Of a stretch of 64,000 bases of DNA, positions 19,441 through 64,000 are shown in pieces (positions within the stretch are counted from its first letter, which is position 1; the number at the start of each line of letters is the position of its first letter). The DNA is from a virus (taxonomy: Duplodnaviria > Caudoviricetes). The notes beneath the pieces were generated by a model. That model ran no database searches. It was not told the DNA's origin and saw only the letters and a program-made list of their open reading frames with translations. The position numbers and the translations under genes were made by a program. The stretch spans positions 96,001-160,000 of the IMG/VR virus record IMGVR_UViG_3300031998_000008. The stretch is one strand, 5' to 3'.

Positions 19441-19728
19441 ATTTGCTATTTTTGAAAATTCGCTTGAAAATTCAGCTCTCATGTCTTTGTTTTTGTAGAG
19501 TTCCATGATTTTTCTACAACATTCCATTATAATGCTTCCGACTCCACGAATACTTATGTTTTGGTATTCTTTACCTATATTTAATTTTGCACCAAAATTG
19601 TACAATTTCATAACTACTGTTTCCAAGCTACTACCATCTTCAAAACCTTCGCTGATAACTCGTTTTGTCGCTTCAGTTACCAAATATTGTAAATCTTGTT
19701 CCGTTAATGTCATTTTTTCGTTTTTCAT
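19423..19728 (-). CDS. Small putative internal head protein with tag
   Basis: MTLTEQDLQYLVTEATKRVISEG. Confidence 0.7.
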   Translation of the reverse strand: MKNEKMTLTEQDLQYLVTEATKRVISEGFEDGSSLETVVMKLYNFGAKLNIGKEYQNISIRGVGSIIMECCRKIMELYKNKDMRAEFSSEFSKIANKNGGA

Positions 19729-20456
19729 TGGTTTAATATTGGGTACATTCTTATTATTCTATTCATTATGCTCCTAACTTGTGATTCATAGTTTTCACGT
19801 TTAGCATATCTGTGGCCGTTCATGTTTACAAATGACTTAGGACTTAATAAATCATCCAAAGTTTTTGTGTTGTTTTGTAAGTAATCATTTTTGATTAGAT
19901 TTATAAATGGTACTATACTTTCATCTGGATTTGAATATGTGCAAACATTTTTACCATTATCATATGAGCCAACTGAAAATACACTGTTTGTTCTTTTTGC
20001 TCTTGGTGTTTGTCCAAAGCATGATTCCAAATTTGCGATTGCCATTGTAAATGCAAGATTGAAATTGTTTTCTTCGCAAGCAGTAACCAATGCCTCAGGC
20101 GTTAAATCTGTTGTTGACCAATCATATCCTTGGTTTTTCATTGCCCATTCCATATAATCTTTACATGCTTGTACTTTTTGGTCATGTATTGTATCTTCCT
20201 GTGGCATTGTATCTTCCGATGCTTCTGTTTGTACCATTTGCTTTAATTCGTTTTTCTCATTATTACTAATATCCAATCGTGCAACCGCACTTAAAATTGC
20301 TGCAACGGTTACACCTGCAAGCAAAGCCTTTTTTATTTTAGACTTTAGAACTTGCATATTTATGGATTCATTTAGTTCACAAAGAAGCAAATCCTCATAT
20401 TGTTCATGTATAAGGATTTGTTTTAATTGTGATTCTGTGAGAACGACTTTTTTCAT
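19725..20456 (-). CDS. Lysozyme-like / glucosaminidase (GH73-like) with tag
   Basis: AFTMAIANLESCFG, NSVFSVGSYD and RYA..NYE motifs; N-terminal VVLTESQLKQIL plus a hydrophobic segment. Confidence 0.7.
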   Translation of the reverse strand: MKKVVLTESQLKQILIHEQYEDLLLCELNESINMQVLKSKIKKALLAGVTVAAILSAVARLDISNNEKNELKQMVQTEASEDTMPQEDTIHDQKVQACKDYMEWAMKNQGYDWSTTDLTPEALVTACEENNFNLAFTMAIANLESCFGQTPRAKRTNSVFSVGSYDNGKNVCTYSNPDESIVPFINLIKNDYLQNNTKTLDDLLSPKSFVNMNGHRYAKRENYESQVRSIMNRIIRMYPILNQ

Positions 20457-31046: not shown

Positions 31047-32987
31047 TTATCTAATTTCTTGTGGGTCCCATTGTACAAGACCATCAACTTTAACAGCTCC
31101 GTAGAATCTGTTGTTAACGCACTTCTTAGCGTATCTTGTCATGATACCCTTAACAGGTGCAAAGTTTTCAGGGTTGTAGATGGTTGGGGTCAATTGCATT
31201 GGGATATAAGGTGCATAGATGTAACCTGTATCCAATAATGATTTACCCTTATGACCGATAATTATTGACCATGCTGGTGAATATGGGTCTCTATAAACTT
31301 GGTATCTGTTTTGAAGAGCACCGATTCTTTCAATACCCATATTGTATTGGTCTGATTCAGCGTTAGCGTCTGAAACGTGGAAGTATTCCAAGTTATCGAA
31401 GACTGCTGAGATTTCTGATGACACAACGATGAAGTTAGCGCCACCTCTAAGAGTTGTCTTGTGGATTTGAGCTGAAACTTGGTTAATCTTAGTCATTAAC
31501 TCTTGGTTCCAGTCCTTTTGAGTATAGTTGGTTGAGAAACCAGCTTGTCTTCTCCATCCGTTGACATCCCATCTTGCTTGCCATGGAGCAAACTTTCTAA
31601 GGTCTCTAAGGATTTCACGGTCAATTTCAGCAGCGATTTGTTCTGACAAAAGTGCTGTCAATTCTGCTTCAGCGTCAATGTTATGGAAAGCACTAACGTC
31701 TTGTGCAAGTTCTGGTGACCATGTTGCTCTAAGTTTTCTTTCTTCAACTGCAACTGTTACGCTGTCAAGTTTGAAAGAAACTTCACCGATTTCAGTTTCA
31801 AGTTCTAATGAGTCGTATTGTGACCAAGCGACTGCGAACATTGATGGGTCAATTGTTTCAGTGTAGTCAATACCTTTGTAACCGTCTAATGAGTCACCTT
31901 GTTTCTTAACTGGTTTTGCCAAGTCAAGGTCAATAAGGATTGAACCGTCAGGTGTGCAGACGTTGTTGTATTCAACCATACCTTTACCGTATTTTTGTGA
32001 TACGACTCTGAATGGGATACCTTCGTATTGTTCGAATGTAGTGTTGCCACTTTCTGATTCGATTGCTTGGTTAGCATAGACTTTCAATGAAGCCAAGAAT
32101 GCTTCTGTGTCCATTTCGTTTCCATCAGGACCTGTTAATTTACCAGCGTTGAATGCTGAGAAACCTTTAACTTTAAGCATGATGTTTCTGATTGTACCAT
32201 CAGCATATGCTTGTGGTTTAACGTTTGTACCATCAATTTCAACTGGTTCAAAGTCAACCAACATAACAGGAGTTACATCGTTAGAAACTCTGATACGAAT
32301 CTTACCTTTTGAGTTGTCATACAAGAAGTCATTGTAGAACAAATCGTAAAGAGTTCTCTTGTTGTATTTTGTTACGTTTGGTGATTTTTGTCTTACGATA
32401 GCATTTTCAATTGTCATTGTTGCTTGAACTGCTTCATCGTAGTTAGTTGCATCAGCAACGTCTGTCCATGTAAGACCACCGTCTGTTGTGTATTCAAATG
32501 CCATTCCGTTGACTACTTCGTCAGGAAGATAGAAACGGTTGTAAGTGCTACCATTTCTTCTGTCTGTTCTTTCGTAGCCCATAAGACCTTTATGTCTGCC
32601 AACTGAACCGTCTTTAACACGGCCATTGTCATCCAAATAATCCCATTCTCTTTCGCTTGTTACAGGAAGCATGAAGAACAACTTACCAACAGGAAGGTTC
32701 ATAGCTTGAACTGAAACGATGTCATTAGCAAGAAGTTTACTGAAAACTCTTCTGATGATAGGGAAAACAACAGTTTCGAATGAACCGCTATTGTCTGATG
32801 CAGTAGCTTCTGAAAGAAGAGCCTTTGCTTCGTTTTCGTACAATGTAGCGATATTTTCCTTAACTATTCCCTTGAGGCCATCGACCATGCCAAGAGCAGA
32901 CCAACGGTCATTGATTTCTTTTCTAATTCTTTTCTGTTCATTGAGTTCGATATTACCCACTTGACCAGATGCTAAAAATTCTCTCAT
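31047..32987 (-). CDS. gp23: Major capsid protein (T4 gp23-like)
   Basis: PIIRRVF..DIVSVQAMNLPVG, RKLRATWSPELAQD, AEIDREI, GYIYAPYIP, KGIMTRY. Confidence 0.96.
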   Translation of the reverse strand: MREFLASGQVGNIELNEQKRIRKEINDRWSALGMVDGLKGIVKENIATLYENEAKALLSEATASDNSGSFETVVFPIIRRVFSKLLANDIVSVQAMNLPVGKLFFMLPVTSEREWDYLDDNGRVKDGSVGRHKGLMGYERTDRRNGSTYNRFYLPDEVVNGMAFEYTTDGGLTWTDVADATNYDEAVQATMTIENAIVRQKSPNVTKYNKRTLYDLFYNDFLYDNSKGKIRIRVSNDVTPVMLVDFEPVEIDGTNVKPQAYADGTIRNIMLKVKGFSAFNAGKLTGPDGNEMDTEAFLASLKVYANQAIESESGNTTFEQYEGIPFRVVSQKYGKGMVEYNNVCTPDGSILIDLDLAKPVKKQGDSLDGYKGIDYTETIDPSMFAVAWSQYDSLELETEIGEVSFKLDSVTVAVEERKLRATWSPELAQDVSAFHNIDAEAELTALLSEQIAAEIDREILRDLRKFAPWQARWDVNGWRRQAGFSTNYTQKDWNQELMTKINQVSAQIHKTTLRGGANFIVVSSEISAVFDNLEYFHVSDANAESDQYNMGIERIGALQNRYQVYRDPYSPAWSIIIGHKGKSLLDTGYIYAPYIPMQLTPTIYNPENFAPVKGIMTRYAKKCVNNRFYGAVKVDGLVQWDPQEIR

Positions 32988-33026: not shown

Positions 33027-33035
33027 ATAAATAGT
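33027..33035 (-). promoter_or_regulatory. Putative late promoter motif
   Basis: ACTATTTAT upstream of the capsid gene. Confidence 0.7.
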
Positions 33036-34917: not shown

Positions 34918-35628
34918 TTAATCATTCAACCATGATGAAAATTTTCCTAATTCTTCAAAAATTTGGTTCTTTTCTGTTTCTTTGCTTTCAATATATTGCT
35001 GTGGAATTTGGTCTTCAGGTGTAATCCATGCTTGTGGGGTTGATGGGTCAGAAACAACGTCCCAACATACTATTTCGTAGTCATCGGCAACATATAGAAC
35101 ACCCATTTTATTCGTAACAGTACCAAGACCCCTTGAAGAGACACCAATTTTAATTCCTTGCAATATTAAGTTTGCAACTTGGTCCCCTTGACATGTAATC
35201 ATGCCATATTTTCTAAATCCTGGACTTGTTATTATTTCAAGTTTTCCAACCAATGTGTGGCCTTCCCAATGTAATTCAACAATATTGATTGCTACTCTTG
35301 AAAGGTCAATTACTGATTCGCTTGGGTGATTACATTCACCTATTGCACGTTTTTCGGCAATTTTTTCCATGTATTTTTGGACCTCACGTTTCAACACGTC
35401 TTCAGGATATATTCTTCCATTGGCGTTTTCTATTCCGAACTTTTGGAATACTGCTGAAACAATGAAAGGGTATGGGCAATGGAAATCATCGCTTACTTTT
35501 CCGTTGTTAATATCCTCGAAAAGTTTCTTGTTTTCTCCGATTTCAGGTGAAATATATCCATCGTGTTCAATAAGAAGACCAGTTCCCGTTTCACCACGTT
35601 TTATTTCTACTAAACTTCCTTTTGCCAT
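34918..35628 (-). CDS. gp21: Prohead core protease (T4 gp21-like)
   Basis: NANGRIYP, GECNHP, GVSSRGLG, WDVVSDPST. Confidence 0.93.
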   Translation of the reverse strand: MAKGSLVEIKRGETGTGLLIEHDGYISPEIGENKKLFEDINNGKVSDDFHCPYPFIVSAVFQKFGIENANGRIYPEDVLKREVQKYMEKIAEKRAIGECNHPSESVIDLSRVAINIVELHWEGHTLVGKLEIITSPGFRKYGMITCQGDQVANLILQGIKIGVSSRGLGTVTNKMGVLYVADDYEIVCWDVVSDPSTPQAWITPEDQIPQQYIESKETEKNQIFEELGKFSSWLND

Positions 35629-36814: not shown

Positions 36815-36823
36815 ATAAATAGT
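36815..36823 (-). promoter_or_regulatory. Putative late promoter motif
   Basis: ACTATTTAT adjacent to a terminator. Confidence 0.7.
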
Positions 36824-36888: not shown

Positions 36889-37251
36889 TTATGCGTAAGG
36901 CTGACGTGGCTGACTTTTTGCCTTTTCTATTTCTCTGCAAACCCAATCATATACTTTAGGGTCTTGTCTTAAAAACTCTTTCATGTTTTCATCCCAATTG
37001 AAAAATCTATGCTGTCTTGCACGACTTACAATTTCTTGTGCCCTATCGTTGATAAGTTGTTGTGTTGATTGACTTATTTTAAACCCTCCATTTTGCTGTT
37101 GAGGCTGTTGTGGTTGCTGTTGCTGTGGCTGTTGTTTTCTACCCCAATTAAAAAGTCCTTCGTTTAATGATTTTTTTAATATTCTTTTTACTGACTCAGA
37201 AACAATTTCTTCCAATTGTTGCGGGGTTATTTGTACGGTTTGCTTACTCAT
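36889..37251 (-). CDS. Tagged Q-rich putative internal head protein
   Basis: QITPQQLEEIVSESVKRILKKSLNEG. Confidence 0.7.
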   Translation of the reverse strand: MSKQTVQITPQQLEEIVSESVKRILKKSLNEGLFNWGRKQQPQQQQPQQPQQQNGGFKISQSTQQLINDRAQEIVSRARQHRFFNWDENMKEFLRQDPKVYDWVCREIEKAKSQPRQPYA

Positions 37252-40585: not shown

Positions 40586-41225
40586 TTAGTCAAATTTTGG
40601 AGAACTGAAAGGTGAATTGTTTGGCTTTGATTGTTTTTTAGGTAACTCTTTTCTGCTTTTATCCATTAATTCATCTTGTGTTGGTCCCAAGTTTTCTTGT
40701 ATCATGTTTAATTGCTTTTTTGTAAAGATAACTTGTTCCATCATTGGTGGTTGTTCATCACCTTGTGCCATATCATCACCATTTTGTGTCTCATCTCTAC
40801 TTAACATACTTTCAGCATATGACCTAACAGCTTCTCTATCTTCGTCTGATAATTGGTTTATTATTGACATTGTATCATCAGAGCCTTCTCCTGCTGTGTT
40901 CGGGTCTTCTCCCATTGGTCCACCGTCCATTTGTTCATCATCTCCCATTGTTCCACCTGCATTTGGGTCATCCATTGGTGCATCACCCATTGGTCCACCC
41001 GCATTTGGGTCATCCATTGGCGCATCACCCATAGGGCCACCTGCGTTTGGGTCATCCATTGGTGCGCCTCCCATTGCATTAGGGTCGCCACCCATCATTG
41101 GGTCTTGTGAAAAAGAAGCATCATCTATAGGAGGTTGTTGAGCATTTCCTCCTGTAGACGATGCATTATTTAATTTTAAGAACGTTTTTTCGTCAACTGA
41201 ATTTTCAGTTAATCCTCTTTTTTTT
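40586..41225 (-). CDS. Acidic repeat protein segment, probably the -1 frameshift extension of 41209..43008
   Basis: Frame stays open from the A9 run (about 41225) through the ATG at 41098 to the stop at 40586; tag IFTKKQLNMIQE. Confidence 0.6.
40945..41070 (-). repeat. 42-bp tandem repeat (APMDDPNAGGPMGD x about 3)
   Basis: Repeated in both protein and DNA. Confidence 0.85.
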
Positions 41226-41226
41226 T
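41193..41226 (-). other. Candidate programmed -1 frameshift signal
   Basis: mRNA U AAA AAA AAA GAGGA, then hairpin UUAACUGA-AAAU-UCAGUUGA. Confidence 0.55.
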
Positions 41227-43008
41227 ATTTTCGCCTTCAATCGGAATACCTTTCTTTAATTGGTACATAACATCTTTAGTGACTGCATTTACCAATTGTG
41301 TGAATGGGTCGCCATCACCAATTTTGCTACCAAATGGTTCTTCGCTGTGAACACTGTCATCGTTCCAGTCTCTACCCCATTGATTTTGGTCTTCACCTGT
41401 TGTTGGTAATTGCATAGGTTGCTTTCTGTAACCAGGGTGTTTACCGAAAACATGAAGTTCATCTTCTTTTAAGATTCTCTTAACAACTGATTCAACGATT
41501 CTGTCCATTCTTTGTCTCTTTGCTTCCATCATTGGTTCTTCCTCAGTGTCTTCTTCACCGCCAAAATCTTCTTCGCCACCGAAATTTTCTTCACCGCCGA
41601 AGTCTTCTTCACCGCCAAAGTCTTCGCCACCAAAGTCTTCACCACCTTCGAAATCTTCTTCACCACCGAAGTCTTCTTCACCACCGAAGTCTTCTTCGCC
41701 ACCGAAATCTTCTTCACCACCTAAATCGTCAGTTTCATCTCCATTGATTTGTGCTTTCAATGCTTCCAATTCTGCTTTTAATGATTCGATTTCTGCTCTC
41801 AAGTCTTCGTCACCTGTTTCTTCATCACCTAATTCTTCATCACCTTCAAAGTTTTCTTCATCACCGAAGTCTTCACCACCCTCTTCATCTGAAAATTCAT
41901 CATCAAGGCCAGCGTCAAAATCAGTATCTGTTGAAGCGTCACCATCTTCTGAATCAAAATCATCGTTATTCAAGTCGAAGTCTTCACCATCTTCTTCAGA
42001 ACCGTTAGCTTCTAATGATTCATCACCATTACCATCATCGTCTGAATTGAAGTCATCTTCTTCACCTTCGTTTATTGAGTTGTTGAATGGGTCGTTGTTA
42101 TGGTCTGTGTCAGGTTCTCCTATACCTGCTGAACTTGGTAAGCCTTCATCCCATTCAGTTGTTTCTTCGTTTACATTTTTTTGGCCATCCATTTCCCAGC
42201 CTACTTGTTTTGGGTCTCTACCTTTACCTATTCCCTCTGTTCCCCAATTTTCTGTGTTAGGCATCAATGGGTTGTCACCAATATCACCCGCTTCTTCGTT
42301 GCAGTTCTTGCAAGTGCATGGGTTGTTGCCGCATTTTTCACAGCAAGTGTTTTCGTTTACTGATGATGGCTTTTGATTGAATGGTCCACTTGTTTGTTTT
42401 TCATGTGGATTGTTTCCATTGAATCCTTTAACATCGTCTTGTTCAACAACCTTTGCTTCAGTACCATCGTTTATTGAATTTCCATTTTTCTTTGGAGTTT
42501 CTGGATTTGTACCACTGAACTTAACAACACCGTCTTTATTTGAAGCACCGATTTCGTTTGCTTCATTCATAATCATTGAAGCGTTGTACATGATTTGTCT
42601 TTGACGTGCAATTTCATTTCTCATCCTATCAGTACCTTCAACCAAGAATTCTTCTTTCTTGAATGGGTCCAAAGTAGCGATGTTTACATTGCCTTCACAA
42701 GCCTCATTAATTGAAGCAAGTTTAAGTTCAAAGTTCTTCAAAGCATTTGCATAACTCTTGTATTCATAGTTTCCTCTGTTGCAGAAACCGCCAAGATAAT
42801 CATATGCTTCAGCTACCATTTCCTTATCCTTAGGTGCTGATTTGATATAATATTTATTGCATTCTCTAATAATACCATAGCTCTTGCCATCTGCTGCAAT
42901 TGCGTGATATTCTAATGTGTGACTTTTAAAGTCATTGCCTTCGTTTAATTCTTTACCATAAGTGTAAAGTCCTTTCATTCTGGCAATTGTTTCTTCAAAA
43001 TTTGACAT
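41209..43008 (-). CDS. Highly acidic prohead-core/internal protein
   Basis: GGEEDF repeats, many [LIVM]xE sites, tag RIVESVVKRILKED; late-motif variant at 43051-43059. Confidence 0.75.
   Translation of the reverse strand: MSNFEETIARMKGLYTYGKELNEGNDFKSHTLEYHAIAADGKSYGIIRECNKYYIKSAPKDKEMVAEAYDYLGGFCNRGNYEYKSYANALKNFELKLASINEACEGNVNIATLDPFKKEEFLVEGTDRMRNEIARQRQIMYNASMIMNEANEIGASNKDGVVKFSGTNPETPKKNGNSINDGTEAKVVEQDDVKGFNGNNPHEKQTSGPFNQKPSSVNENTCCEKCGNNPCTCKNCNEEAGDIGDNPLMPNTENWGTEGIGKGRDPKQVGWEMDGQKNVNEETTEWDEGLPSSAGIGEPDTDHNNDPFNNSINEGEEDDFNSDDDGNGDESLEANGSEEDGEDFDLNNDDFDSEDGDASTDTDFDAGLDDEFSDEEGGEDFGDEENFEGDEELGDEETGDEDLRAEIESLKAELEALKAQINGDETDDLGGEEDFGGEEDFGGEEDFGGEEDFEGGEDFGGEDFGGEEDFGGEENFGGEEDFGGEEDTEEEPMMEAKRQRMDRIVESVVKRILKEDELHVFGKHPGYRKQPMQLPTTGEDQNQWGRDWNDDSVHSEEPFGSKIGDGDPFTQLVNAVTKDVMYQLKKGIPIEGENKKKED
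41548..41722 (-). repeat. Imperfect 18-bp tandem repeat (GGEEDF x about 10)
   Basis: (gaa)gtcttcttcaccacc units on the + strand. Confidence 0.9.
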
Positions 43009-43077: not shown

Positions 43078-45453
43078 TTATGGTAAACTGTTTAAATTAT
43101 CATAGGTTTGGGTTTTTAATTTATACAATTTGTCTAAGTATCCAAGTCTGCGAAGTGACTTAAATACAATGTTTCCGTTTGATATTTCTGATTTGCCTTT
43201 ATTAAGTTCACCTTTTCTTTCATTTTTGATGGTGTCCCAAAGTTTGTTTGCTTTGTGTGCTATAATCTCAATTTTATGGTTATCTTTTTTGTATTTTTTG
43301 TATAAATCAATTAATTCATCAACATTGTCCATGTATTTTGCAACTTTTGATTTAATCAAATGTTTGTTTACTTTTGCCTTTGCTAATGTGTCTCTTTTTG
43401 GCTCCGTTAGCCATTCATTTTTATCTAATGAGTAAACTCCTGTTGATGCATGCGCTTCGTTTGTGTCTTGTACATATACTTCAACAGGAAAACCAAATAT
43501 ATTAAGACCCTCATGTTCATCATTCCATAAATTCTTCAAAGAATCGAAATATTTTTTAACAAAGTCTGTTCTTCTATCAACCTTTGAAAAATCCATTAAC
43601 ACATGTAAGTCAATGTCTGAATATTTGTCATTCCAATTGAAATTAGCCAAAGAGCCTGTCATAATGACATCATCGGGCTTTACCCAATCAACGCCTAAGA
43701 ATTCAATGAAATCATCTGCAATATCCATGAGTTTAAGCCTGATTCTTGAATCAAGCAAATTGTTCTTCCAAAATTTTGGATTTAATTCACGTTTTATATT
43801 GAATGATGATAAATCAACATCTTCAGGGTCTGTGTCATCTATGATTCTTGCTTCTTTAAGCATTTCTTTTTCTGAGTTTTCATATTCAGTCCATTTTCTG
43901 AAGTAAATATTACCTTTTAGATATGCTTCTGCTTCAACTTTTTCCAACTCTTTATTGTCTTTCACGTCATCATTTGAGGTGAATGTGAGGTTTATTCCCC
44001 TCAAATTTTGTGAGTGGTGAATCATTTCATGCGCAAAAGTTCTTAAAATATCTTTAGGGTGTCTGTCTTTACAGAAAACAGTAATTTCCTTTTCTTCAGG
44101 TGAATAGAAGCCAGTTTTAATGAATAAACCATCTTGTTCTGACCAATCCAAATGAACTTTTGGGAATGGTGACACTTGTAGCCCGCTTTTTTCCATAAAC
44201 TCAGCGATTTTTTTGAAATTTTCTTCAAATTCGCTGTTTTTTGAAGATTCGTTTACATGGTAATATGGATTTAAGTCCATTGACCTTTCAGGACCAAGCA
44301 TAAATACATCAGGACCACCAGGTTCAGCACCTTCTTCCATTGCTCCACCTGCTGTTACACCATCCATAATTCCTGCGTTTACTTTGTTATGTACTTGGTC
44401 TTGTGCTGTTGGAACTTTTTCTTCATACACTGAAAGTCGGCCAGCATCTTCCTCGCTTCTTGGCTTGAATGTTGCTCTATAATTGATTCCTGTTAATCTT
44501 TGTAAATCAACAGAAGTTTGTAATCCTGGTACATTTTCCCCATCAAAGTCATGGTTCCATCTTGTGGTTATATTATCAGGCTCACCATCCAATCCAACAA
44601 TAACAGATATTAATGATAGGCCATATTCATCAAGTGGACAATTTTCACCTTGTTCTTTGGGAATATCTTCAAAACCACGTTTTTCCAATATATAGAATTT
44701 TCCACCATCACTTGTATATTGACCATATTCAAATTGACCTTTTTGTCCACAAATACACCAATCAGTGTAATTTTTCAACATTGCAAGATGTAACTTGCTT
44801 TCTTCAGTAGGAACAAACATTCTTGTGTTATACCCACCAACTAAATGGTCTTTAACTTCAAATACTGTATAATCATGTGAATCTGAATATTCTGAAGAAT
44901 CCAATTCGCTGTTTGTAACTTCCATGAATTTTTCAATGAATGGCTTTGTGTATTCAATAAGTTCGTCATATGAAAATCCGTTCAAATTTCCGTCCAACTG
45001 CAATCCCATTTCGTGCAATAGGTTTTCTCTATTGCATATTCTATTCATTAACTTTCCAAGGTTCATAATTTTACCGCCTTGCATTTCTGAGCCAAAACTG
45101 TAAAATCCAAGTTCTGTTATTGCTATTCTTGCAATACCTTTAATATACTTTTTAATACCATTGTTATATGTTAATCCAAATTGCTGAAGGAAATTTGCTC
45201 TTAAATAATCGAAAAATGTGTTTTTTCCATCCGGATGGTCTGCAACAGATGTGAACAATCCTGATTCACCCTCATCACCTGGGTTCAAAATCCTTTGTAT
45301 CATATCAGGGAGTTCCCTAAGAGGTGTGTCCATCATTGGTTGGAAATATGGTGCTGTATATTCTCTTATGTAAGTATTTACAGCACGGTCAGCTGCTGAT
45401 TCAGCCAACATTATTTTTCTCTTTTGCTCTTCTGTTATGTATATTGTTTTCAT
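43078..45453 (-). CDS. Tagged polyvalent protein: WC[IT] domain + HExxH metallopeptidase + Pol-beta-type nucleotidyltransferase
   Basis: MKTIYITEEQ tag; TDWCICG..ITTRWNH; RTFAHEMIHHSQ..EAEAY; MTGSLANFNW..YSDIDLH. Confidence 0.8.
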   Translation of the reverse strand: MKTIYITEEQKRKIMLAESAADRAVNTYIREYTAPYFQPMMDTPLRELPDMIQRILNPGDEGESGLFTSVADHPDGKNTFFDYLRANFLQQFGLTYNNGIKKYIKGIARIAITELGFYSFGSEMQGGKIMNLGKLMNRICNRENLLHEMGLQLDGNLNGFSYDELIEYTKPFIEKFMEVTNSELDSSEYSDSHDYTVFEVKDHLVGGYNTRMFVPTEESKLHLAMLKNYTDWCICGQKGQFEYGQYTSDGGKFYILEKRGFEDIPKEQGENCPLDEYGLSLISVIVGLDGEPDNITTRWNHDFDGENVPGLQTSVDLQRLTGINYRATFKPRSEEDAGRLSVYEEKVPTAQDQVHNKVNAGIMDGVTAGGAMEEGAEPGGPDVFMLGPERSMDLNPYYHVNESSKNSEFEENFKKIAEFMEKSGLQVSPFPKVHLDWSEQDGLFIKTGFYSPEEKEITVFCKDRHPKDILRTFAHEMIHHSQNLRGINLTFTSNDDVKDNKELEKVEAEAYLKGNIYFRKWTEYENSEKEMLKEARIIDDTDPEDVDLSSFNIKRELNPKFWKNNLLDSRIRLKLMDIADDFIEFLGVDWVKPDDVIMTGSLANFNWNDKYSDIDLHVLMDFSKVDRRTDFVKKYFDSLKNLWNDEHEGLNIFGFPVEVYVQDTNEAHASTGVYSLDKNEWLTEPKRDTLAKAKVNKHLIKSKVAKYMDNVDELIDLYKKYKKDNHKIEIIAHKANKLWDTIKNERKGELNKGKSEISNGNIVFKSLRRLGYLDKLYKLKTQTYDNLNSLP

Positions 45454-45473: not shown

Positions 45474-45482
45474 ATAAATAGT
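45474..45482 (-). promoter_or_regulatory. Putative late promoter motif
   Basis: ACTATTTATA adjacent to a terminator. Confidence 0.7.
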
Positions 45483-46103: not shown

Positions 46104-46112
46104 ATAAATAGT
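46104..46112 (-). promoter_or_regulatory. Putative late promoter motif
   Basis: ACTATTTATA on the minus strand. Confidence 0.65.
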
Positions 46113-46843: not shown

Positions 46844-46952
46844 AACAAAATGTATTTTATTATAATAATATACGCTTTTTTTGCCAAAAATCAAAACATT
46901 TGTTTTTATTGTTAATTTTTTGTACATTAGCCTTAACAAGAAATTTTTGAAT

Positions 46953-49535
46953 ATGGCAGAGATTGAAAAAAATGCTAACGAACAATCATTTGACAACATT
47001 AATATGTCAAATGAACTTGAAGAACTTTTGGATTTTATTATTAACGATTTATCTAAGGAATTACCGACATTAACTGTTGATTTGAATTATTTCCTTCTTG
47101 GGTCTTTAGTGCAGAAGAATAACAATCTGTATAAGAGGCTTGAGATGTGTATGATGACAACAACAATGAATGCCATATATAATTCTTTCTATCAAGTTGT
47201 TTCTTCAAAGGCTCTTAGTGCTGTAAAAAGCAATAGAAAGACTAATTTTGACAATAAATTTTATGAAATAGTAAACAAGGCAAGTGAAATAGCAAAGGAA
47301 CTTGAAAGTGAAGAGGTGACTTCAGAACACGTATTCCTTGCTATTTTAGGAGATAGTGATGATGGAAACAAAATCAGGAAAGTTTTCAACAAAGCCGGCC
47401 TTACTTATGGTGTTTTCAAAGACAAACTCCAAGACAGCTTGGTAAGTTTCGATGAAAATGGTATTATGAGTGGAAATCTTGGGAACGGAATGGGCGTTAA
47501 GATTATCCAAGCAAAAACTCCTGAGGAAGCAATGCGTAAGATGAAAGAAAGCATTGAAAACGAAATGAATCAGATGACTGGTGGTAAGAAATCAAGCAAG
47601 ACTTCATCAAAAACACCTTATATAGATGAATATTGCACTGATTTGAATGCTTTGGCTGAAAGCGGTAAGATGGAGCCAATCATTGGCCGTGAGAAAGAAA
47701 TTGCACAAATCATTAGAATCCTTGGTAGGAAAAACAAGAACAACACAATTCTTGTTGGCGGCGAGGGCGTTGGTAAAACAGCAATTGGTGAAAGTATTGC
47801 CTATAAGATTGTTAATGGCGAAGTTCCTGAATTTTTACTTAACAAGAGGGTTGTTTCACTTGACATGACTGCTATGATGGCAGGTACTACTCTTAGAGGT
47901 ATGTTTGAGGAACGTGTAAAGGGCGTTATGGATGAAATCAAGAAATATAGGAATTTCATTTTATTCATGGATAATATTGGTGCAATTCTTGCTGATAAAG
48001 GTAAGAATGACTATGAAATCTCTTCAATGCTTTCACGTGGTCTTGAAACCGGTGAAATCCAAGTAATCGGTACTTCAGATTTTGCTTCTTATAGAAAGAC
48101 ATTCGATAAAGACCCAAGTTTGGCAAGACGTTTCCAAAAGATTATTGTTGAATCACCAAGTATTGATGAATCAATTAGAATTTTGGATGGCATTAAGGAA
48201 TCATATGAGACCTACCATAAGGTTAGATATGAAGATGGTGTTATCGAAGCATGTGTAAAACTTGCGGATAAGTACATTTCAGAACGTAATTTGCCTGATT
48301 CAGCAATTGATATTCTTGATGAAATTGGTTCATTGAATGGTACATCAAACGAGCCTACTGCTCTTAAAGAACTGAAGGCCCGTATTACGTTATTTGAGGA
48401 TAAGATGGATGAAGCAAAGAGGGAAAAGGATTATGAAAGTGCTGATGCTATTTCAAAAGAAATTATTTTGTTGAAGAAACAATATAACGAGGAAAAGGAT
48501 AGTTACGAAAAGGACCGTAACGAAAACCATATTCCTGTAACTGTTAATGACATTCTTAACCTTATTTCAGTTAAAACAGGTATTCCTGTAAGCAATCTTA
48601 ATTCAGATGACAAGAAGAAATTGTCAGGAATGAATGATAGGCTTAAAGAAAGTGTTGTTGGTCAAGATGAGGCAATTGACACTGTTTGCAAGGCGTTGAA
48701 ACGTAATAGAGTTGGCCTTAGCAATAATGGTTGCATGTATAGTTACATGGCAATTGGTAAAACAGGTACAGGTAAAACCTTGTTGGCAAAGAAACTTGCT
48801 AAAGAGTTATTCGGTGATGAAAAGGCCCTTGTTAGATTTGATATGTCTGAATATTCAGATAAGGTTTCAGTAAACAAACTTATTGGCTCAAATCCTGGTT
48901 ATGTTGGATATGAAGAGGGTGGACAATTGACTGAAACAATCAAAAATAAGAAACATTGCGTTCTTTTGCTTGATGAAATTGAAAAGGCTGACCCTGAGGT
49001 TTACAACATTTTCTTACAGGTTCTTGATGAAGGATTCTTAACAGATAACTCTGGCCAGCGTGTGGATTTCAAGAATGTAATCGTGGTATTTACATCAAAC
49101 GTTGGTGCAAAGGCTGCAAGTGAATTTGGTAAAGGAATCGGATTTGCTAACGATGAGGAAGAAAATACAAAGAGAATCTTGTTGAAACAACTTAAAAATA
49201 GATTTCCACCTGAATTTCTTAACCGTATCAATGATGTTATATACTTTAACACATTGAATGACGATGACCTTAATTCAATTATTAAGATTGAAATTGGTAA
49301 ACTTGAGAGCAGGTTAAATGGAATGGGATATTCCATGGAATATGACAACGATGTTGTTCAATACATTCTTAAAGAAATACAAGATGAAAAAGACTTCGGT
49401 GCAAGACCTATTATTAGGTGTATTCAAGAAAACATCGAAGACAAACTAACGGACAAACTTCTTGAGAATGATTACGAAAAAGGATATGTGTTCAAAATTT
49501 CTTGTCCTGAATTAAGTGCCGTAACAGTCGCTTAA
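46953..49535 (+). CDS. clpC: ClpC/ClpA-like AAA+ unfoldase (start revised to MAEIEK)
   Basis: Two NBDs (GEGVGKT; GKTGTGKT, LLLDEIEKA), RRFQ, PDSAIDILDE, RFDMSEY, IGF loop, GARP. Confidence 0.9.
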   Translation: MAEIEKNANEQSFDNINMSNELEELLDFIINDLSKELPTLTVDLNYFLLGSLVQKNNNLYKRLEMCMMTTTMNAIYNSFYQVVSSKALSAVKSNRKTNFDNKFYEIVNKASEIAKELESEEVTSEHVFLAILGDSDDGNKIRKVFNKAGLTYGVFKDKLQDSLVSFDENGIMSGNLGNGMGVKIIQAKTPEEAMRKMKESIENEMNQMTGGKKSSKTSSKTPYIDEYCTDLNALAESGKMEPIIGREKEIAQIIRILGRKNKNNTILVGGEGVGKTAIGESIAYKIVNGEVPEFLLNKRVVSLDMTAMMAGTTLRGMFEERVKGVMDEIKKYRNFILFMDNIGAILADKGKNDYEISSMLSRGLETGEIQVIGTSDFASYRKTFDKDPSLARRFQKIIVESPSIDESIRILDGIKESYETYHKVRYEDGVIEACVKLADKYISERNLPDSAIDILDEIGSLNGTSNEPTALKELKARITLFEDKMDEAKREKDYESADAISKEIILLKKQYNEEKDSYEKDRNENHIPVTVNDILNLISVKTGIPVSNLNSDDKKKLSGMNDRLKESVVGQDEAIDTVCKALKRNRVGLSNNGCMYSYMAIGKTGTGKTLLAKKLAKELFGDEKALVRFDMSEYSDKVSVNKLIGSNPGYVGYEEGGQLTETIKNKKHCVLLLDEIEKADPEVYNIFLQVLDEGFLTDNSGQRVDFKNVIVVFTSNVGAKAASEFGKGIGFANDEEENTKRILLKQLKNRFPPEFLNRINDVIYFNTLNDDDLNSIIKIEIGKLESRLNGMGYSMEYDNDVVQYILKEIQDEKDFGARPIIRCIQENIEDKLTDKLLENDYEKGYVFKISCPELSAVTVA

Positions 49536-49536
49536 T

Positions 49537-49568
49537 AAAAAAGCCCGATTTAGTTCGGGCTTTTTTTT
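49537..49568. terminator. Bidirectional terminator
   Basis: A6GCCCGA/TCGGGC-T8. Confidence 0.85.
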
Positions 49569-52077
49569 ATTTCATTCTTGCTCTTTTTGGAATTTCAAAA
49601 CTAAAATTCTTATTTTGAGGAACAAATAATGTATTAGTTGATAGAACATTTGTTAATTCCTTGAAAGCTGAAGAATTTGCTGAATGTATATAATACATTG
49701 GTATTTGTTCACCATGCTTTTTGCAATAATTCACTAAGAATATAGCACAATCTTTTGAACTTTTCCCATCAGTTGATGCAGCGCCTAAATCCCTATCAAA
49801 TGATATGAATTCAGGAACACCATTTTTCTGTATGTATTCAACAAACTCAGTGTAATTATGCACACAGTCAAACATTATATTATATTTTTTCATTAGTTCA
49901 ACAAACGCAATTTGGTTGTTCATTCCAACTTTACTTGTTTGTTTTCCTTGTGCGGCTAATTCAAATTGTTTGAATGGCTTTCTTGTATCATCAACCCATA
50001 ATATTTTTAGGTTTTGCTTTCTCTTGCTGTATCCATTTACAAACTCTGAGCCGTATTCAATGTTCGTTGACAATTTCTTTATTTCTTGTTCTTCAGGTGA
50101 AACTTCACGTCTTGACGGTGATAAAGATGGGTCGTTTGTAAAATTAAATCCACCTTCAGGTTTAAATAATGGTATTCTTCCAAGAGTCCAACTTTCTGAC
50201 ATTTGTCCAAAAGTTATCGGAAGCATATATCTCTTTTCTATTCCTTTTTGCATAAATTGATAGCAAACATCAGATAATGTTGAACCACCGCTTATGTTAT
50301 CATCAAAAACAATAAATAATGTTCCTTTTATTCTTTCCAATTCTTCTTGTACATGCTTTATTGTCTCAGGACTTGTTGTGTGTGGGTCATCATCAAATCT
50401 GTATATGTTTCTAAGTCCCATTCTTTCACCGTTTGATATTTTTTTGATTTCAAATGGTGATGGCCTCCATTCACATATTTCATATGGGTTTTTCAAATAA
50501 GGTTCACCATCAATTTCACTTCTTTCACCCCATAGGCGTGTTTTAATCATTTCAATAATTTTTCTTGTTCTGTTTTCTATTGATGGGCCTTTTGAATATT
50601 TGATAGGTTTAATTATCTTATATAAAGTAACTTTTGAGTCTTCATCAGTTATTTCGTTGTGATAATGTGCATCACGTATTATTTGCTTTATGTAATCAGC
50701 ATAAAGTTTGTAATGTTCTGCAATTCTGTCTATTGCGGTTTCTTGATTTTTTGCATATTTTAAGTTTTGGATACAATGAAGTATTTTTTTCGTTTGTAAG
50801 TTTACTAAATTAATTGTTTGTTGTGCTTTTTGTATGTTTGTGCTTCTGTTTATATCGTTTTGTAGGAAGTTCATAACAGAAGTTTCTCTCTTTGACCTTG
50901 GTGAATCATAAAATCCTTGATTCATTCTAACAAAATCTGAGTCAATTTGAAGATTGTTCAAGTCTTTTGTGAGTATATTTGTGTCAATTGCTTGAATTGG
51001 CATTCCACATACTTGTAACTTTGATAATTCTTGTGCCATTTTTACATTAAAGTTGCTTGAACTTTTTATTGGATAAATTGATATGGCCCTAAATTCTGTA
51101 TCAGGACGCATTCTTAAATCCTTCATATAATCTTCAACGACAATTTCAATTTTTCTTTTGAATTGATTCATGAAATCATTAAACTCGTTTGCTTCCATGT
51201 CCATTTCATATTCCTTGCCACCAATTTCTGCTTTTGCCTTTTGTGAATCAAAATAGTGTTTGAAATATTGCATTACGTATTCACCTTTAATTGATGTTAT
51301 GTTATATGACATCAATCCGCCTTTTAATTGTACTTTGTATGTGTCGTTGTTTGATTTATCCATTAAGTCGGTTTTAAGTTTTTCACCACTTAAAAGATTT
51401 CCTTTTGCACGGTCAGTTCCGTTATCACCGTTTTTCTCATAATGAATCATTGCTTTTTTACCTTTAATCCTGTCAATATATGCAGATTCATTAAGTTTAC
51501 TTTCTTCTAATTTTTTCTTTTGGATTTCAACGTAGTCAGCGAAAGGTTTTCTTTGCTTATTGCCCCTGTAAAGCCATTTTTTGAATAGTCTTAAAGAAAC
51601 ACCAGTAATAGACCTAAACCCAGTCCAACCTTTATTGTAGTTTGATAAATATGCACTTTTTGCTTCTTCTTTTGACTTGAAGCCAATCATAACTTTACTT
51701 TCGTCAAATTCACCATCTTTGTTGTTTTGGTCAATGACATATACTTTATCAAAGTCATCTGGATATGGGCCAATGAAAACATCAACGGCATCACCGTCTT
51801 TTCCGTTACCACTTGTGTTCCTAAAGTATCCATAGTGATTTTGCATGGTTACTTCACCATATCCTTTATCGTTTTTGTATTTTCTAACTGAGCCTTTGGG
51901 GTTTTCTATTGAAATTGGCATGCCTTTAACTGAAAAATGACCCATTTTATAGTTTCCGGCTTCTTTTTGCGCATCCGTTGGGGTCAAATTAACATTCTTG
52001 CACTCAGCGTCAATTTCTGACGTTGAAACTTCAGATATAAGGTGTTTGAACTGTTCTTCTGTCAATATAATTTTCAT
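49567..52077 (-). CDS. Tagged polyvalent protein: InPase domain + PRTase-like + cyclic-phosphate-processing receiver (cREC)
   Basis: MKIILTEEQF tag; KEAGNYK..ISIENPKGS..HYGY..DGDAVDVFIG..FDESKVMIGF; IVFDDNISGGSTL; LWVDDTR..ISFDRDLG..IHSAN. Confidence 0.8.
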   Translation of the reverse strand: MKIILTEEQFKHLISEVSTSEIDAECKNVNLTPTDAQKEAGNYKMGHFSVKGMPISIENPKGSVRKYKNDKGYGEVTMQNHYGYFRNTSGNGKDGDAVDVFIGPYPDDFDKVYVIDQNNKDGEFDESKVMIGFKSKEEAKSAYLSNYNKGWTGFRSITGVSLRLFKKWLYRGNKQRKPFADYVEIQKKKLEESKLNESAYIDRIKGKKAMIHYEKNGDNGTDRAKGNLLSGEKLKTDLMDKSNNDTYKVQLKGGLMSYNITSIKGEYVMQYFKHYFDSQKAKAEIGGKEYEMDMEANEFNDFMNQFKRKIEIVVEDYMKDLRMRPDTEFRAISIYPIKSSSNFNVKMAQELSKLQVCGMPIQAIDTNILTKDLNNLQIDSDFVRMNQGFYDSPRSKRETSVMNFLQNDINRSTNIQKAQQTINLVNLQTKKILHCIQNLKYAKNQETAIDRIAEHYKLYADYIKQIIRDAHYHNEITDEDSKVTLYKIIKPIKYSKGPSIENRTRKIIEMIKTRLWGERSEIDGEPYLKNPYEICEWRPSPFEIKKISNGERMGLRNIYRFDDDPHTTSPETIKHVQEELERIKGTLFIVFDDNISGGSTLSDVCYQFMQKGIEKRYMLPITFGQMSESWTLGRIPLFKPEGGFNFTNDPSLSPSRREVSPEEQEIKKLSTNIEYGSEFVNGYSKRKQNLKILWVDDTRKPFKQFELAAQGKQTSKVGMNNQIAFVELMKKYNIMFDCVHNYTEFVEYIQKNGVPEFISFDRDLGAASTDGKSSKDCAIFLVNYCKKHGEQIPMYYIHSANSSAFKELTNVLSTNTLFVPQNKNFSFEIPKRARMK

Positions 52078-52079
52078 TT

Positions 52080-53069
52080 TTACATCAAAAAATTACTGTC
52101 AAGCGTTCCATGTACGCCAATTTTATTATTCAACCAAGCATCCATGACTTTTGTCAAGAATAACTCACGTTCTGTTTTATCCAAGAACATTTTTTGGAAT
52201 GTATCAATAAGATAATCTTTCAAATCGTCAGTGTACATATATTTTAACACATTATCACCATCCATCATACCGACAATTTTGATTTTCTTTTTCTTACCAC
52301 CTTCCAATGTTGTATAATTGAATTGTCTGAAGTTGTTATCAAGGTGTTTTTTGACTATAAGAACCTTTTCAGGGTCTATACAATACGGCTTGTTCATTTT
52401 TTTATCAACAGGCATTTGCGCTTTTTGTATATCTGATTCTTTTAGAAGTTCTATAAGTCTTTTTTCCTGTTCTTCTGATATTATGAGTTTTTTACATTCG
52501 TTCATTTGTCTTGCTTGTTGTATTTTTGCTAACCTTTCTCTGCATTGTTGTAATTCAGCGAACATTTTTTGTGCTGTTTCATTGAAATCAGAACCATTCA
52601 TTATTTTGTCACCTTGGTTTTCCTTATCATTTAAAATGTCAGGTATTTTTTCACCTTGGATTAATATGTCTGTGTCGCTTTTATCGTTTTTTTCTGATAT
52701 TTGCCAACCGTCTTGGTTAATTTTTTCCGCCAATTGGTTAAACTCTTGTCCATGTTCTGGAACAATTTTCAAAACGAATAAACAATACATGTGAATCATT
52801 TCATGGAGCAATGAGTTTTGTATTGATGATTCGGTCCTGTAATATCTGTTTGTAAATGCCATTTCACCTGATGATGTGACGTTGGTGATTTTGTTTCCAT
52901 TATACTCAGCCGTTTCGTTATTATAACAGGCCCAATTATTAGCAGGACACCTATAACTAAATTTTGGCATTGGTAATTTACCACCAAAATACTTGGTATT
53001 AAATGCCTTGAAATTAGTTACAAGCCACTGTGTATTTGGGACCATTTTATTTTTATCGTATTGCTCCAT
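52080..53069 (-). CDS. SprT-like metallopeptidase with internal tag (start revised to MEQYD)
   Basis: FNTKYFGGKLP, LLHEMIH, HGQEF; KKLIISEEQEKRLIELLKES. Confidence 0.8.
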   Translation of the reverse strand: MEQYDKNKMVPNTQWLVTNFKAFNTKYFGGKLPMPKFSYRCPANNWACYNNETAEYNGNKITNVTSSGEMAFTNRYYRTESSIQNSLLHEMIHMYCLFVLKIVPEHGQEFNQLAEKINQDGWQISEKNDKSDTDILIQGEKIPDILNDKENQGDKIMNGSDFNETAQKMFAELQQCRERLAKIQQARQMNECKKLIISEEQEKRLIELLKESDIQKAQMPVDKKMNKPYCIDPEKVLIVKKHLDNNFRQFNYTTLEGGKKKKIKIVGMMDGDNVLKYMYTDDLKDYLIDTFQKMFLDKTERELFLTKVMDAWLNNKIGVHGTLDSNFLM

Positions 53070-53095
53070 GCAAATTTTCGGTTTTATCTTTAAGT

Positions 53096-53104
53096 ATAAA
53101 TAGT
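53096..53104 (-). promoter_or_regulatory. Putative late promoter motif
   Basis: ACTATTTATA adjacent to a terminator. Confidence 0.7.
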
Positions 53105-53114
53105 TTAAGGGCAT

Positions 53115-61690: not shown

Positions 61691-64000
61691 TTAAAATTTT
61701 GTTTTACTTATTTTGTTGTATATTTTGTTAAAGTTTTCGGCCATTTGTGTTATCTGACTGTTTACTATGGCATCAACTTTTTGTTGGTTTGCTTGTGTAT
61801 TTGGTGCGGCAGGTGTTGTTATTGCTGTCAATCTGTTTTTATCTGCATAGAATCTACATTCAATATCATTACCTGTTTCATCGTCTTGTAAGTTCATTGT
61901 TACAAGCATTATACCTGCACCCACATGTACATCCTTTATATATTCTTTGTTTATACCGTTTGTTGACGGGAATATTATATTTTTGCTTCCAATTAAAAAT
62001 AGCCTTGTGTTGAAGAACATAACCTTATTGTCTGTTGTTGTGAATGCAAATGAGTGGTCTGGAAGTTCTGCTATTATTTTATTTGCTGTCTCAGGTATTA
62101 AAAGAGCGCCTTTATAGAAAACGTTCACTTTTTCATCTTTATATATCTTATATGCATATCCATCAGATATTATGTTACAACCATTCATTCTTTTTATGCC
62201 TGTCATTATAATTTTTTGGTATTTTGAATCATATATGCACATTTGAAGTTCCTCATTCCAAAATACAATGTATTCACCATAATCACCGATAACGCCATAT
62301 TTTTCAAAATTATATTCAGATGCATATAGTTTTGCATCATTGGCATCAAATAGACCGAGGTAAGGTTCTTGTTCGTTAATTTTAACCACGAATCTTCCAT
62401 TGTGTAATGTTTTTTCTATATTAGCAAAACTTCCTATTATTTTACCATTTTCCAAGAATATTGATACCCCATTTTGTATATCGCCATTGTTAAGCATCAT
62501 ATTATACCCAACATAAAAGTCAGTTCCGTTAACAAAGTCAATTTTTTGAAATCTTTCTTTTCTTAATGTTTTGATGTTTAAGAAATCAACGAAACCTTCT
62601 CTAAAATAAACCAAAGCAGAATATGCATTCTTAGATGGTCTTATTTTACTTGGTAGTTTTTCTATATCGCTTGAATCGTATAAGAATTCATTTTTATCTT
62701 TTAGATATATGTTATAATATTTACCGTCACCCGAATGTCTGTACCTTACGATATAGGCATTGTCTTGTAATTCTTCTTCAAGGTCATATGAATAATTAAC
62801 AGGTGTTCCCCAGTGATTTGCACTAAGATAATGCACACCAAATCTACCTCTAATATAACACATATCTTTTTCTTCGTCATATTCTATTTTATATCCCTCA
62901 TCATAGAATGGGGCATCTTTTGAAATGACTGTTTCAAAATCGTCTTTTTCAATATAGAACAATGCACTATAGCCATTTGAATAATTTACTTGAATGAATG
63001 AGCCATCTGAGTAATAATCAAGGTATCCGTCACCTCTTGATATTTCGCTATATAAAAATTCGGGATTTACAATGACATCATAATCAGACATTGTATTAAG
63101 GTCCCCAACCGGTATCATGTAATCACATTCACTTTTTTCATCACACACAAACAATGTGTTTCTGTCGGTGATAAACCAAGCAAGACTGCCTGTTCCATAT
63201 GACTGTTCATTTTTAAGTGGTGATGCTGTCCAATATGACGAATTTCTGCTTCCATTATTTTCTTTATAGCAAGCAAAAAACTCGTTTGCTGTTGTTCTTA
63301 ATATAATACATGGATAAGCATCTTCTCCATAATATTCATTGTAGAATGGCTCAACAACACAGTCTTCTGGATTGTTTGGCACTGGTTTAAGGCAAATTGG
63401 GTCTGATTCATCATCACCATCATAAACAAACCATTCACCGTCAGGACTATAAACAGGAACTTCATCGTTTGATTTTACCAATAACAATAATTCATGGTAA
63501 CTATCTTCACTTCCTTTCAATGTATATCCGTTTTCACGTCTTATTACATAGTAATCATTCCAATCATCTTCTGTGTATTCTCTTTCTCTTTCATATTCAC
63601 CGTTGATTACTTGTGCGTATCTTTCATCCTGTTCACCATAGAAATCAACAACCTCTTGCGGCATGTGAATATTTTCAAATTCAACTCTATTATCTCTTGA
63701 ATCCATTAACTCGCCATAGAAATTTCTATACTCGAAAAGGAATTGATACCTTTTATATGGATATTCTTTTTTATCAACGGGGCATATTTCGCCTCTTCTC
63801 ATGTCGAAGTTAATCCATAATGGTCCATATTCGGTATATCTTCTATAATATCCTGGCCCATCACCAAATGCACCTGCCGTACACCATTTACACCCTTGTC
63901 CTAATTTTACTGATGCTTGATATGAATGAGGTACTGCTATCTTCCAATCTGGGGTGTCATACACAATTTCATAATTATCCTCAGGACCGCCATTTCCAAC
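61691..64000 (-). CDS. Large WCT-domain protein, paralog 2 (5' end beyond the window)
   Basis: Frame open to the window edge (VGNGGPEDNYEIVYDTPDW...GCKWCTAG); near-identical WCT block to paralog 1. Confidence 0.8.
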   Translation of the reverse strand, partial: VGNGGPEDNYEIVYDTPDWKIAVPHSYQASVKLGQGCKWCTAGAFGDGPGYYRRYTEYGPLWINFDMRRGEICPVDKKEYPYKRYQFLFEYRNFYGELMDSRDNRVEFENIHMPQEVVDFYGEQDERYAQVINGEYEREREYTEDDWNDYYVIRRENGYTLKGSEDSYHELLLLVKSNDEVPVYSPDGEWFVYDGDDESDPICLKPVPNNPEDCVVEPFYNEYYGEDAYPCIILRTTANEFFACYKENNGSRNSSYWTASPLKNEQSYGTGSLAWFITDRNTLFVCDEKSECDYMIPVGDLNTMSDYDVIVNPEFLYSEISRGDGYLDYYSDGSFIQVNYSNGYSALFYIEKDDFETVISKDAPFYDEGYKIEYDEEKDMCYIRGRFGVHYLSANHWGTPVNYSYDLEEELQDNAYIVRYRHSGDGKYYNIYLKDKNEFLYDSSDIEKLPSKIRPSKNAYSALVYFREGFVDFLNIKTLRKERFQKIDFVNGTDFYVGYNMMLNNGDIQNGVSIFLENGKIIGSFANIEKTLHNGRFVVKINEQEPYLGLFDANDAKLYASEYNFEKYGVIGDYGEYIVFWNEELQMCIYDSKYQKIIMTGIKRMNGCNIISDGYAYKIYKDEKVNVFYKGALLIPETANKIIAELPDHSFAFTTTDNKVMFFNTRLFLIGSKNIIFPSTNGINKEYIKDVHVGAGIMLVTMNLQDDETGNDIECRFYADKNRLTAITTPAAPNTQANQQKVDAIVNSQITQMAENFNKIYNKISKTKF

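Follow-up and report, generated by a model that had tools for sequence, protein, structure and literature searches.

When a phage strings several enzyme-like domains together on one polypeptide, and encodes that polypeptide among its head genes, are the domains meant to stay together or to be cut apart, and by which protease? The question is raised by an open reading frame (ORF) at 43078..45453 on the minus strand of a 64,000-nucleotide stretch of Caudoviricetes DNA (positions 96,001 to 160,000 of IMG/VR record IMGVR_UViG_3300031998_000008), which we call the window and to which all coordinates refer, on the minus strand unless stated otherwise. The ORF encodes a protein of 791 amino acids (aa), and the phage is a huge one, since the record spans 207,929 bp at an estimated completeness of ~56%. 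A first-pass annotation of the window had read the protein as a polyprotein that is packaged whole and divided by a gp21-type protease into separate effectors; the ORF and all of the motifs that it quoted are present where it placed them. With a little better than even confidence, we hold that the protein is capsid-targeted polyvalent cargo that would be cut by the prohead protease at five sites into separate effectors, and an extension of the logic known from phage T4 is the reading that we favour as the most economical.

From its N-terminus, the protein comprises a leader (residues 1-18), module A (19-344), a low-confidence segment (345-402), a small zincin (403-534) and a Pol-beta-type nucleotidyltransferase (NTase; 535-791). 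AlphaFold2 (AF2) gave three confident folds for the full protein, at a mean predicted local distance difference test (pLDDT) score of 75.9, and low-confidence stretches (pLDDT <50) at residues 1-5, 9-18, 342-405 and 527-541. A homologue search among 5.8 billion proteins returned 572 relatives, and pairwise mapping onto these resolved three shuffled modules, A (1 to ~344), B (~345-537) and C (~537-791), which occur as A+B+C, B+C, A+C, A+insert+B+C and A+B+insert+C. Upstream of a B+C-only form in the related contig L004, the gene is not a separate module A. Natural fission into A and B+C genes was considered for two further contigs, L008 and L007, and rejected: the apparent splits (L008:7100-7200, with an A10 run, and L007:3150-3300) sit at poly-A runs where another frame reads through, and could be frameshifts or assembly errors, or could reflect slippage.

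The case for cut sites rests on the position of [LIVM]-x-E motifs and on their conservation among homologues, and not on their number. The motifs that fall within the low-confidence segments are exactly those ending at E18, E344, E374, E402 and E534, that is, the end of the leader (L-A-E|S, the bar marking the candidate cut) and four junction motifs, VYE|E (342-345), MEE|G (372-375), VNE|S (400-403) and LKE|A (532-535); the claim of the first-pass annotation that such sites fall between the domains thus holds against the AlphaFold boundaries. Counted over 22 full-length orthologues, they are kept at E18 in 22/22, at E344 in 20/22, at E374 in 19/22, at E402 in 18/22 and at E534 in 22/22, and they stand as islands between the gaps of the alignment. 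Conservation of at least 80% was found for 5/5 motifs in the low-confidence parts versus 2/12 in the folded parts (Fisher p = 0.0034), and among 140 control motif classes [LIVM]xE alone yielded five such sites, the runner-up yielding two. The modules recombine exactly at these motifs, and modules inserted in relatives, such as the small zinc ribbon that separates B from C in one example, carry L-x-E-S on either side. In 111/111 homologues of module C, a motif lies no more than 22 residues upstream of the module, against a random-window background of 0.36, even though these homologues present 76 distinct local upstream sequences and are preceded variously by B, a zinc ribbon, A or other inserts; a motif also stands just before module A in 30/34 divergent representatives. 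Forms that have no zincin (P0119, P0104-P0112) still carry the junction motifs, which suggests that the protease acts in trans.

The leader (45400..45453; MKTIYITEEQKRKIMLAE|S, ending in L-A-E|S and modelled with low confidence) is not peculiar to this gene. It is kept on homologues (MKTIYITEEQ...I.LAE) whichever module comes first, and no fewer than six further genes of this genome, all unrelated, share it, a looser form of the pattern occurring within the first 30 aa of 7/205 genes of the phage against 0.8 expected. Among the bearers are an InPase + cREC polyvalent protein (49567..52077; Pfam), which has the leader together with the L-x-E pattern, a 120-aa head-cluster protein (36889..37251; …VQITPQQLEEIVSE|S) and a 243-aa glucosaminidase-domain protein (19725..20456; MKKVVLTESQLKQILIHE). 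The InPase family, which is unrelated to that of the 791-aa protein, repeats the leader and junction pattern independently: its homologues have the leader on the first module, whichever that is, and an internal LNE|S matches the leader-LNE| of forms in which the middle module leads. A separate SprT-like zincin gene (52080..53114) lies directly upstream of the InPase gene, a pairing kept in the related contigs L004 and L005. In giant relatives of the 791-aa protein (1100-2500 aa; P0248, P0249, P0266, P0301 and others), the full ITEEQ-type leader is repeated internally, with copies that precede modules and are flanked by L-x-E (in P0248 at 404, 968 and 1503), and from their sequences these giants look like tandem fusions, or chains of leader-site-module units.

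A protease of the appropriate family is encoded nearby. The ORF at 34918..35628 is a gp21-type prohead serine protease (Peptidase_S77; PF03420, E 4.5e-28) with 33% identity to T4 gp21, and the gp23-type major capsid protein (31047..32987; Pfam Gp23, E 5e-74) has L-L-S-E|A at residues 57-61, aligned by BLASTP with F-L-T-E|A of T4 gp23. We take the L-T-E|A bond of T4 gp23 to be the gp21 cut that frees the 65-residue propeptide. The L/I-x-E rule for gp21 and the propeptide length of 65 residues are documented (PMC9026906), and T4 brings unrelated proteins into its head by means of a targeting sequence of 10 N-terminal residues, gp21 cutting after L/I-x-E (PMC9026906). The S77 protease also has N-terminal motifs of its own, L-V-E at residues 6-8 and L-I-E at 19-21, reminiscent of the L-I-E that the same source discusses close to the start of T4 gp21.

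Taken together, we posit the following course of events. The 791-aa protein would be expressed late, in a huge phage whose head resembles that of T4, and its 18-residue leader would act like the T4 capsid-targeting sequence, taking the precursor into the prohead core. There the gp21-type protease would cut after Glu at E18, E344, E374, E402 and E534, in linkers predicted to be disordered, removing the leader and freeing, besides two short peptides, module A (~37 kDa, which looks like an enzyme and conserves Cys, His, Asp and Arg residues), the zincin (~15 kDa) and the NTase (~30 kDa). The pieces would remain with the DNA in the head, reach the host at infection and act as ready-made early effectors.

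Module A (44422..45399), which ends in V-Y-E|E, has a helical N-terminal half followed by an alpha/beta half, and modelled alone it reaches a pLDDT of 89 and a predicted template modelling (pTM) score of 0.81. Its DWCICG motif occupies residues 231-236, and the invariant residues W232, C233, D275, R298, N300 and H301 lie in the alpha/beta half. The domain is abundant: its profile matched 1061 cluster representatives, the longest of the proteins that carry it measuring 2525 aa, and a single protein could contain as many as 5 matched stretches. Searches of Pfam, NCBIfam, PADLOC and PHROGs found no family for it, comparison with PDB sequences found no match, and fold comparison with the PDB by Foldseek (best E 0.27) and with 48,161 chains (VIA; best Z 4.2) found no fold match; to the WC[IT] domain that the first-pass annotation had named here, these searches assign neither a function nor a known fold. 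Only viral hypothetical clusters were returned by an atlas search with module A, in one of whose neighbour clusters PcfJ occurs on 26% of members, and the PcfJ-like profile (PF14284) matched 1/47 module A members weakly (E 0.03). Weak PARP rows suggested an ADP-ribosyltransferase, which we rejected on the order of the conserved residues, as it fits neither R-S-E nor H-Y-E. Pfam scans of the giant relatives found no informative partner domains. A 757-aa protein encoded in the same window (61691..63964) begins with KWCTAG...Y..YT...GE.CP.D, resembling the W-C core of module A, and may carry a second, divergent copy of the domain; the profile comparison (E 0.0028 over 52 columns, with a probability of only 10.9%) is suggestive and does not establish it.

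The segment between module A and the zincin (residues 345-402; 44248..44421) had been taken for a linker, and its pLDDT is below 50; it is no mere linker, being conserved (KVPxAQDQV...MEE|G...YHVNE|S, with motifs at E374 and E402) and, in the alignment, always travelling with the zincin. One relative (P0039) is without the segment, and in forms without module A the segment joins the leader directly. The zincin itself (residues 403-534; 43852..44247), a small metallopeptidase domain ending in L-K-E|A, bears out the HExxH peptidase of the first-pass annotation: HEMIHH lies at 475-480, H475, E476, H479, H480 and E507 are invariant, and fold matches to Wss1 (Z 8.0), BepA (Z 7.9), SPRTN (Z 7.2) and IrrE (Z 7.2) support a predicted zincin fold. 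In the AF2 model, its elements are helix 405-422, strands 432-436, 448-451 and 456-460, helix 466-484, which carries HEMIHH, and helix 501-526, which carries E507. Of the Pfam models, the peptidase models of polyvalent proteins did not match and DUF6782, a putative metallopeptidase family, matched residues 440-501 only below threshold (E 2.6e-4); the module B profile had no meaningful match among PDB sequences.

Module C (residues 535-791; 43081..43851) combines a Pol-beta-type NTase with a C-terminal helical bundle. The expected hG[GS] is represented by G600-S601, the [DE]x[DE] by D613-I-D615 and the third carboxylate, on a later strand, by E658 or D663; TGSL...SDIDLH spans residues 599-617, and each of G600, S601, D613, D615, E658 and D663 is kept in 95% or more of 113 sequences, in line with the earlier assignment to this superfamily. 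The Pfam score for NTP_transf_2 (residues 588-666; 19.3 bits) falls below the cut-off of 21. Residues 552-784 belong to PHROG 36119, a family without known function (E 4e-40), and neighbour clusters of module C in the atlas carry PF01909. Its fold matches FAM46 (Z 7.0) and the minimal archaeal NTase 2rff (Z 6.8), and Foldseek gave weak matches to CdnE, to aminoglycoside NTases (ANT) and to MNT, the best row being CdnE (E 6.7e-3, TM 0.21 by target) with ANT and MNT scoring about equally. A check for CD-NTases in PADLOC and NCBIfam gave no match, and the module C profile had no meaningful match among PDB sequences. Stand-alone relatives of module C in Synechococcus phage S-CRM01 and in Maribacter phages are leaderless and lie among early and replication genes.

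The genomic neighbourhood places the tagged gene with the head genes. It sits in a one-strand block with the S77 protease and the Gp23 capsid gene, which in the direction of transcription encodes a KTSC-domain protein, a 165-aa protein, the 791-aa protein, two acidic low-complexity proteins, proteins of 1100, 120 and 388 aa, Peptidase_S77, a 597-aa scaffold-like protein and the Gp23-type capsid protein, and the association with the protease, scaffold-like and capsid genes is kept in related contigs, including L004 and L008. A promoter-like motif, the nine-base ACTATTTAT, lies at 45474..45482, ~20 nt upstream of the ATG of the 791-aa ORF; the window holds 17 copies, where shuffling predicts 1.25, and most of them stand a short way ahead of a gene, the capsid gene and other head genes among these (for example 33027-33035, 36815-36823 and 46104-46112, all on the minus strand). 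Because the motif precedes both the 791-aa gene and the capsid and other head genes, they are probably co-regulated, and ACTATTTAT may be a late promoter element in this phage. Directly downstream of the 791-aa gene lie the two very acidic low-complexity proteins (40586..41098 and 41209..43008), with PMDDPNAGG and EDFGGE repeats, which may be core, scaffold or DNA-mimic proteins of the head; the 599-aa one contains five [LI]xE[SAG] motifs against 1.5 expected. On the opposite strand to the surrounding tagged cargo genes, 46881..49535 (plus strand) encodes a ClpB/ClpA-like double AAA+ protein, in a position kept in L004 and L008, and it is conceivable that this protein handles the tagged cargo.

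Several observations weigh against cleavage into separate effectors. We infer, for an uncultured phage known from its sequence, that the protein is packaged, that the S77 protease cuts it at the five sites and that the pieces are injected, as we do their biochemical activities and targets, and the prohead proteases of T4 and SPN3US mostly trim N-terminal propeptides instead of setting enzyme domains apart (PMC9026906, PMC10052503). The raw number of [LIVM]xE motifs in the protein, 17 against 15.8 expected, shows no enrichment and was dropped as evidence, and enrichment is modest beyond it too: such motifs are just modestly enriched in head-cluster proteins, and the modest genome-wide enrichment of [LI]xE[SAG] lies in two scaffold-like proteins. 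Motifs at E276 and E684 are equally conserved and lie inside folded domains, so the motif by itself does not define a cut site, and the distance from motif to fold is fairly fixed before modules A and C, so that conservation could be partly structural, as in the capping of a first helix. The leaderless stand-alone relatives of the NTase among early genes mean that packaging is not required for this module to function, and the split genes of L008 and L007 are not clean fissions between modules.

Some of these observations are shared by the alternative that survives best, which we nevertheless consider unlikely. It holds that only the leader is removed, as in the T4 internal proteins and Alt, and that the packaged remainder is one multi-domain chain, whose internal L-x-E motifs have been kept because they cap the first helix of each module at its N-terminus or because they are leftover leader ends after fusion. 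This would agree with known substrates, which mostly lose just their terminal propeptides (PMC9026906, PMC10052503), and with the fixed motif-to-fold distance before modules A and C, and the full leaders within the giant relatives demonstrate that tagged genes which were once separate do become fused. A helix cap, however, sits poorly with motifs that lie in low-confidence, gap-rich linkers rather than in predicted helices and that are constrained at P3 and P1 only, the middle residue and P1' varying as in a protease site, and E374 and E402 lie within a segment that starts no fold. A vestigial motif, for its part, would decay, yet these motifs are kept in 18-22 of 22 orthologues and before 111/111 module C homologues.

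It is improbable that the embedded zincin (module B) itself processes the precursor, in cis or in trans and before packaging or after injection, with the prohead protease uninvolved at the internal sites. The A+C forms retain the junction motifs with no zincin to act on them, the InPase family retains them without a zincin domain in Pfam, and the motif fits both the specificity of gp21 and the aligned motif of the capsid protein. Nor is P1-Glu specificity a known feature of Wss1/SprT/IrrE-like zincins. What keeps this alternative under consideration is that module B has invariant catalytic residues, that the separate SprT-like zincin gene (52080..53114) is close by, and that the role was proposed for the zincin-like peptidases of polyvalent proteins by Iyer et al. 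2017 (PMC5512222).

There is similarly little chance that the protein is an intracellular, non-virion enzyme of several domains, whose leader (with L-x-E as part of the signal) serves recognition by the ClpB-like AAA+ protein, localisation or assembly, since, for all that the stand-alone NTase relatives are ordinary early-region genes and the ClpB-like gene (46881..49535) is syntenic among the tagged genes, the block with the protease, scaffold-like and capsid genes is conserved, the capsid gene has the same upstream motif, the leader also stands on a peptidoglycan hydrolase, which is sensible for an injected protein, and the parallel to the T4 targeting sequence and L/I-x-E is close (PMC9026906).

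Cleavage of the tagged cargo by the prohead protease could also be part of something broader, which we put forward tentatively and regard as doubtful in its full extent. A cassette grammar may operate across a large uncultured clade of huge phages, in which modules with ITEEQ leaders, bracketed by L-x-E and present in any number, form capsid-loaded polyproteins; the gp21-type protease would then be a true polyprotein processor that frees an injected enzyme cocktail, and residues 345-402 would be a pro-peptide whose removal activates the zincin only inside the head.

If cleavage into separate effectors does take place, the T4 loading rule, a leader plus a cut at L/I-x-E, would extend from small single proteins to modular precursors of several enzymes, and its reach would be a large uncultured group of huge phages. 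It would offer a sequence rule for listing injected effector sets from metagenomes alone, and an alternative to the self-processing of polyvalent proteins by their own zincin. Module A, with its 1061 cluster representatives, and the NTase of PHROG 36119 would be candidates for pre-made early effectors, and the leader could serve to tag foreign proteins for capsid loading in these phages, as the T4 sequence does.

How does this arrangement compare with known systems? The closest parallel is with the T4 internal proteins IPI-III and Alt, in that unrelated proteins of one phage have in common a short N-terminal leader with L/I-x-E at its end, the phage encodes an S77 protease of the gp21 family and a capsid protein with an aligned L-x-E|A, and the cargo of T4 is believed to affect the host immediately upon injection (PMC9026906). 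The leader here is different and longer (an ITEEQ...I...LxE helix) and recurs inside giant relatives, and several enzyme modules stand in a string with candidate sites between them, whereas the T4 substrates lose terminal propeptides only. Many inner head proteins of phiKZ, 201phi2-1 and SPN3US are cut behind the Glu of a three-residue motif, by a gp21-related protease and with redundant propeptide sites (PMC9026906, PMC10052503). In that case, however, the motif is S/A/G-x-E, N-terminal propeptides of 20-254 residues are removed and separation of catalytic domains is not described, and these giants differ from our phage in lineage and in their set of capsid genes.

With the polyvalent proteins of Iyer, Burroughs, Anand, de Souza and Aravind 2017 (PMC5512222), the 791-aa protein shares the joining of unrelated effector-type domains in one polypeptide (here three modules that fold separately in the AF2 model, two of them with conserved catalytic residues), highly variable, mosaic architectures, a zincin-like peptidase module that may fall in one of the 12 clades of that study, a neighbourhood of virion genes and an InPase on a neighbouring gene. 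It differs in having a short leader and no MuF or portal-associated domain, and in junction motifs that match the prohead protease and persist without a zincin, where processing by the embedded zincin was proposed for polyvalent proteins; the Pol-beta NTases described in that study are of a minimal version found only in proteins of conjugative elements, unlike the two-part, 250-residue phage form seen here. If cleavage occurs as we propose, there would be a further likeness to the polyproteins of eukaryotic RNA viruses and retroviruses, with one precursor, linear sites in linkers, a viral protease and separate enzymes as products, although there is no homology, the processing would happen within the prohead of a DNA phage and what is released would be cargo for delivery instead of replication machinery. 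Our literature search returned no description of prohead-protease sites arranged so as to part the enzyme modules of a tagged precursor. Capsid targeting and head processing in T4, and polyvalent proteins, are already known, and what would be new is their combination in a single gene of this phage.

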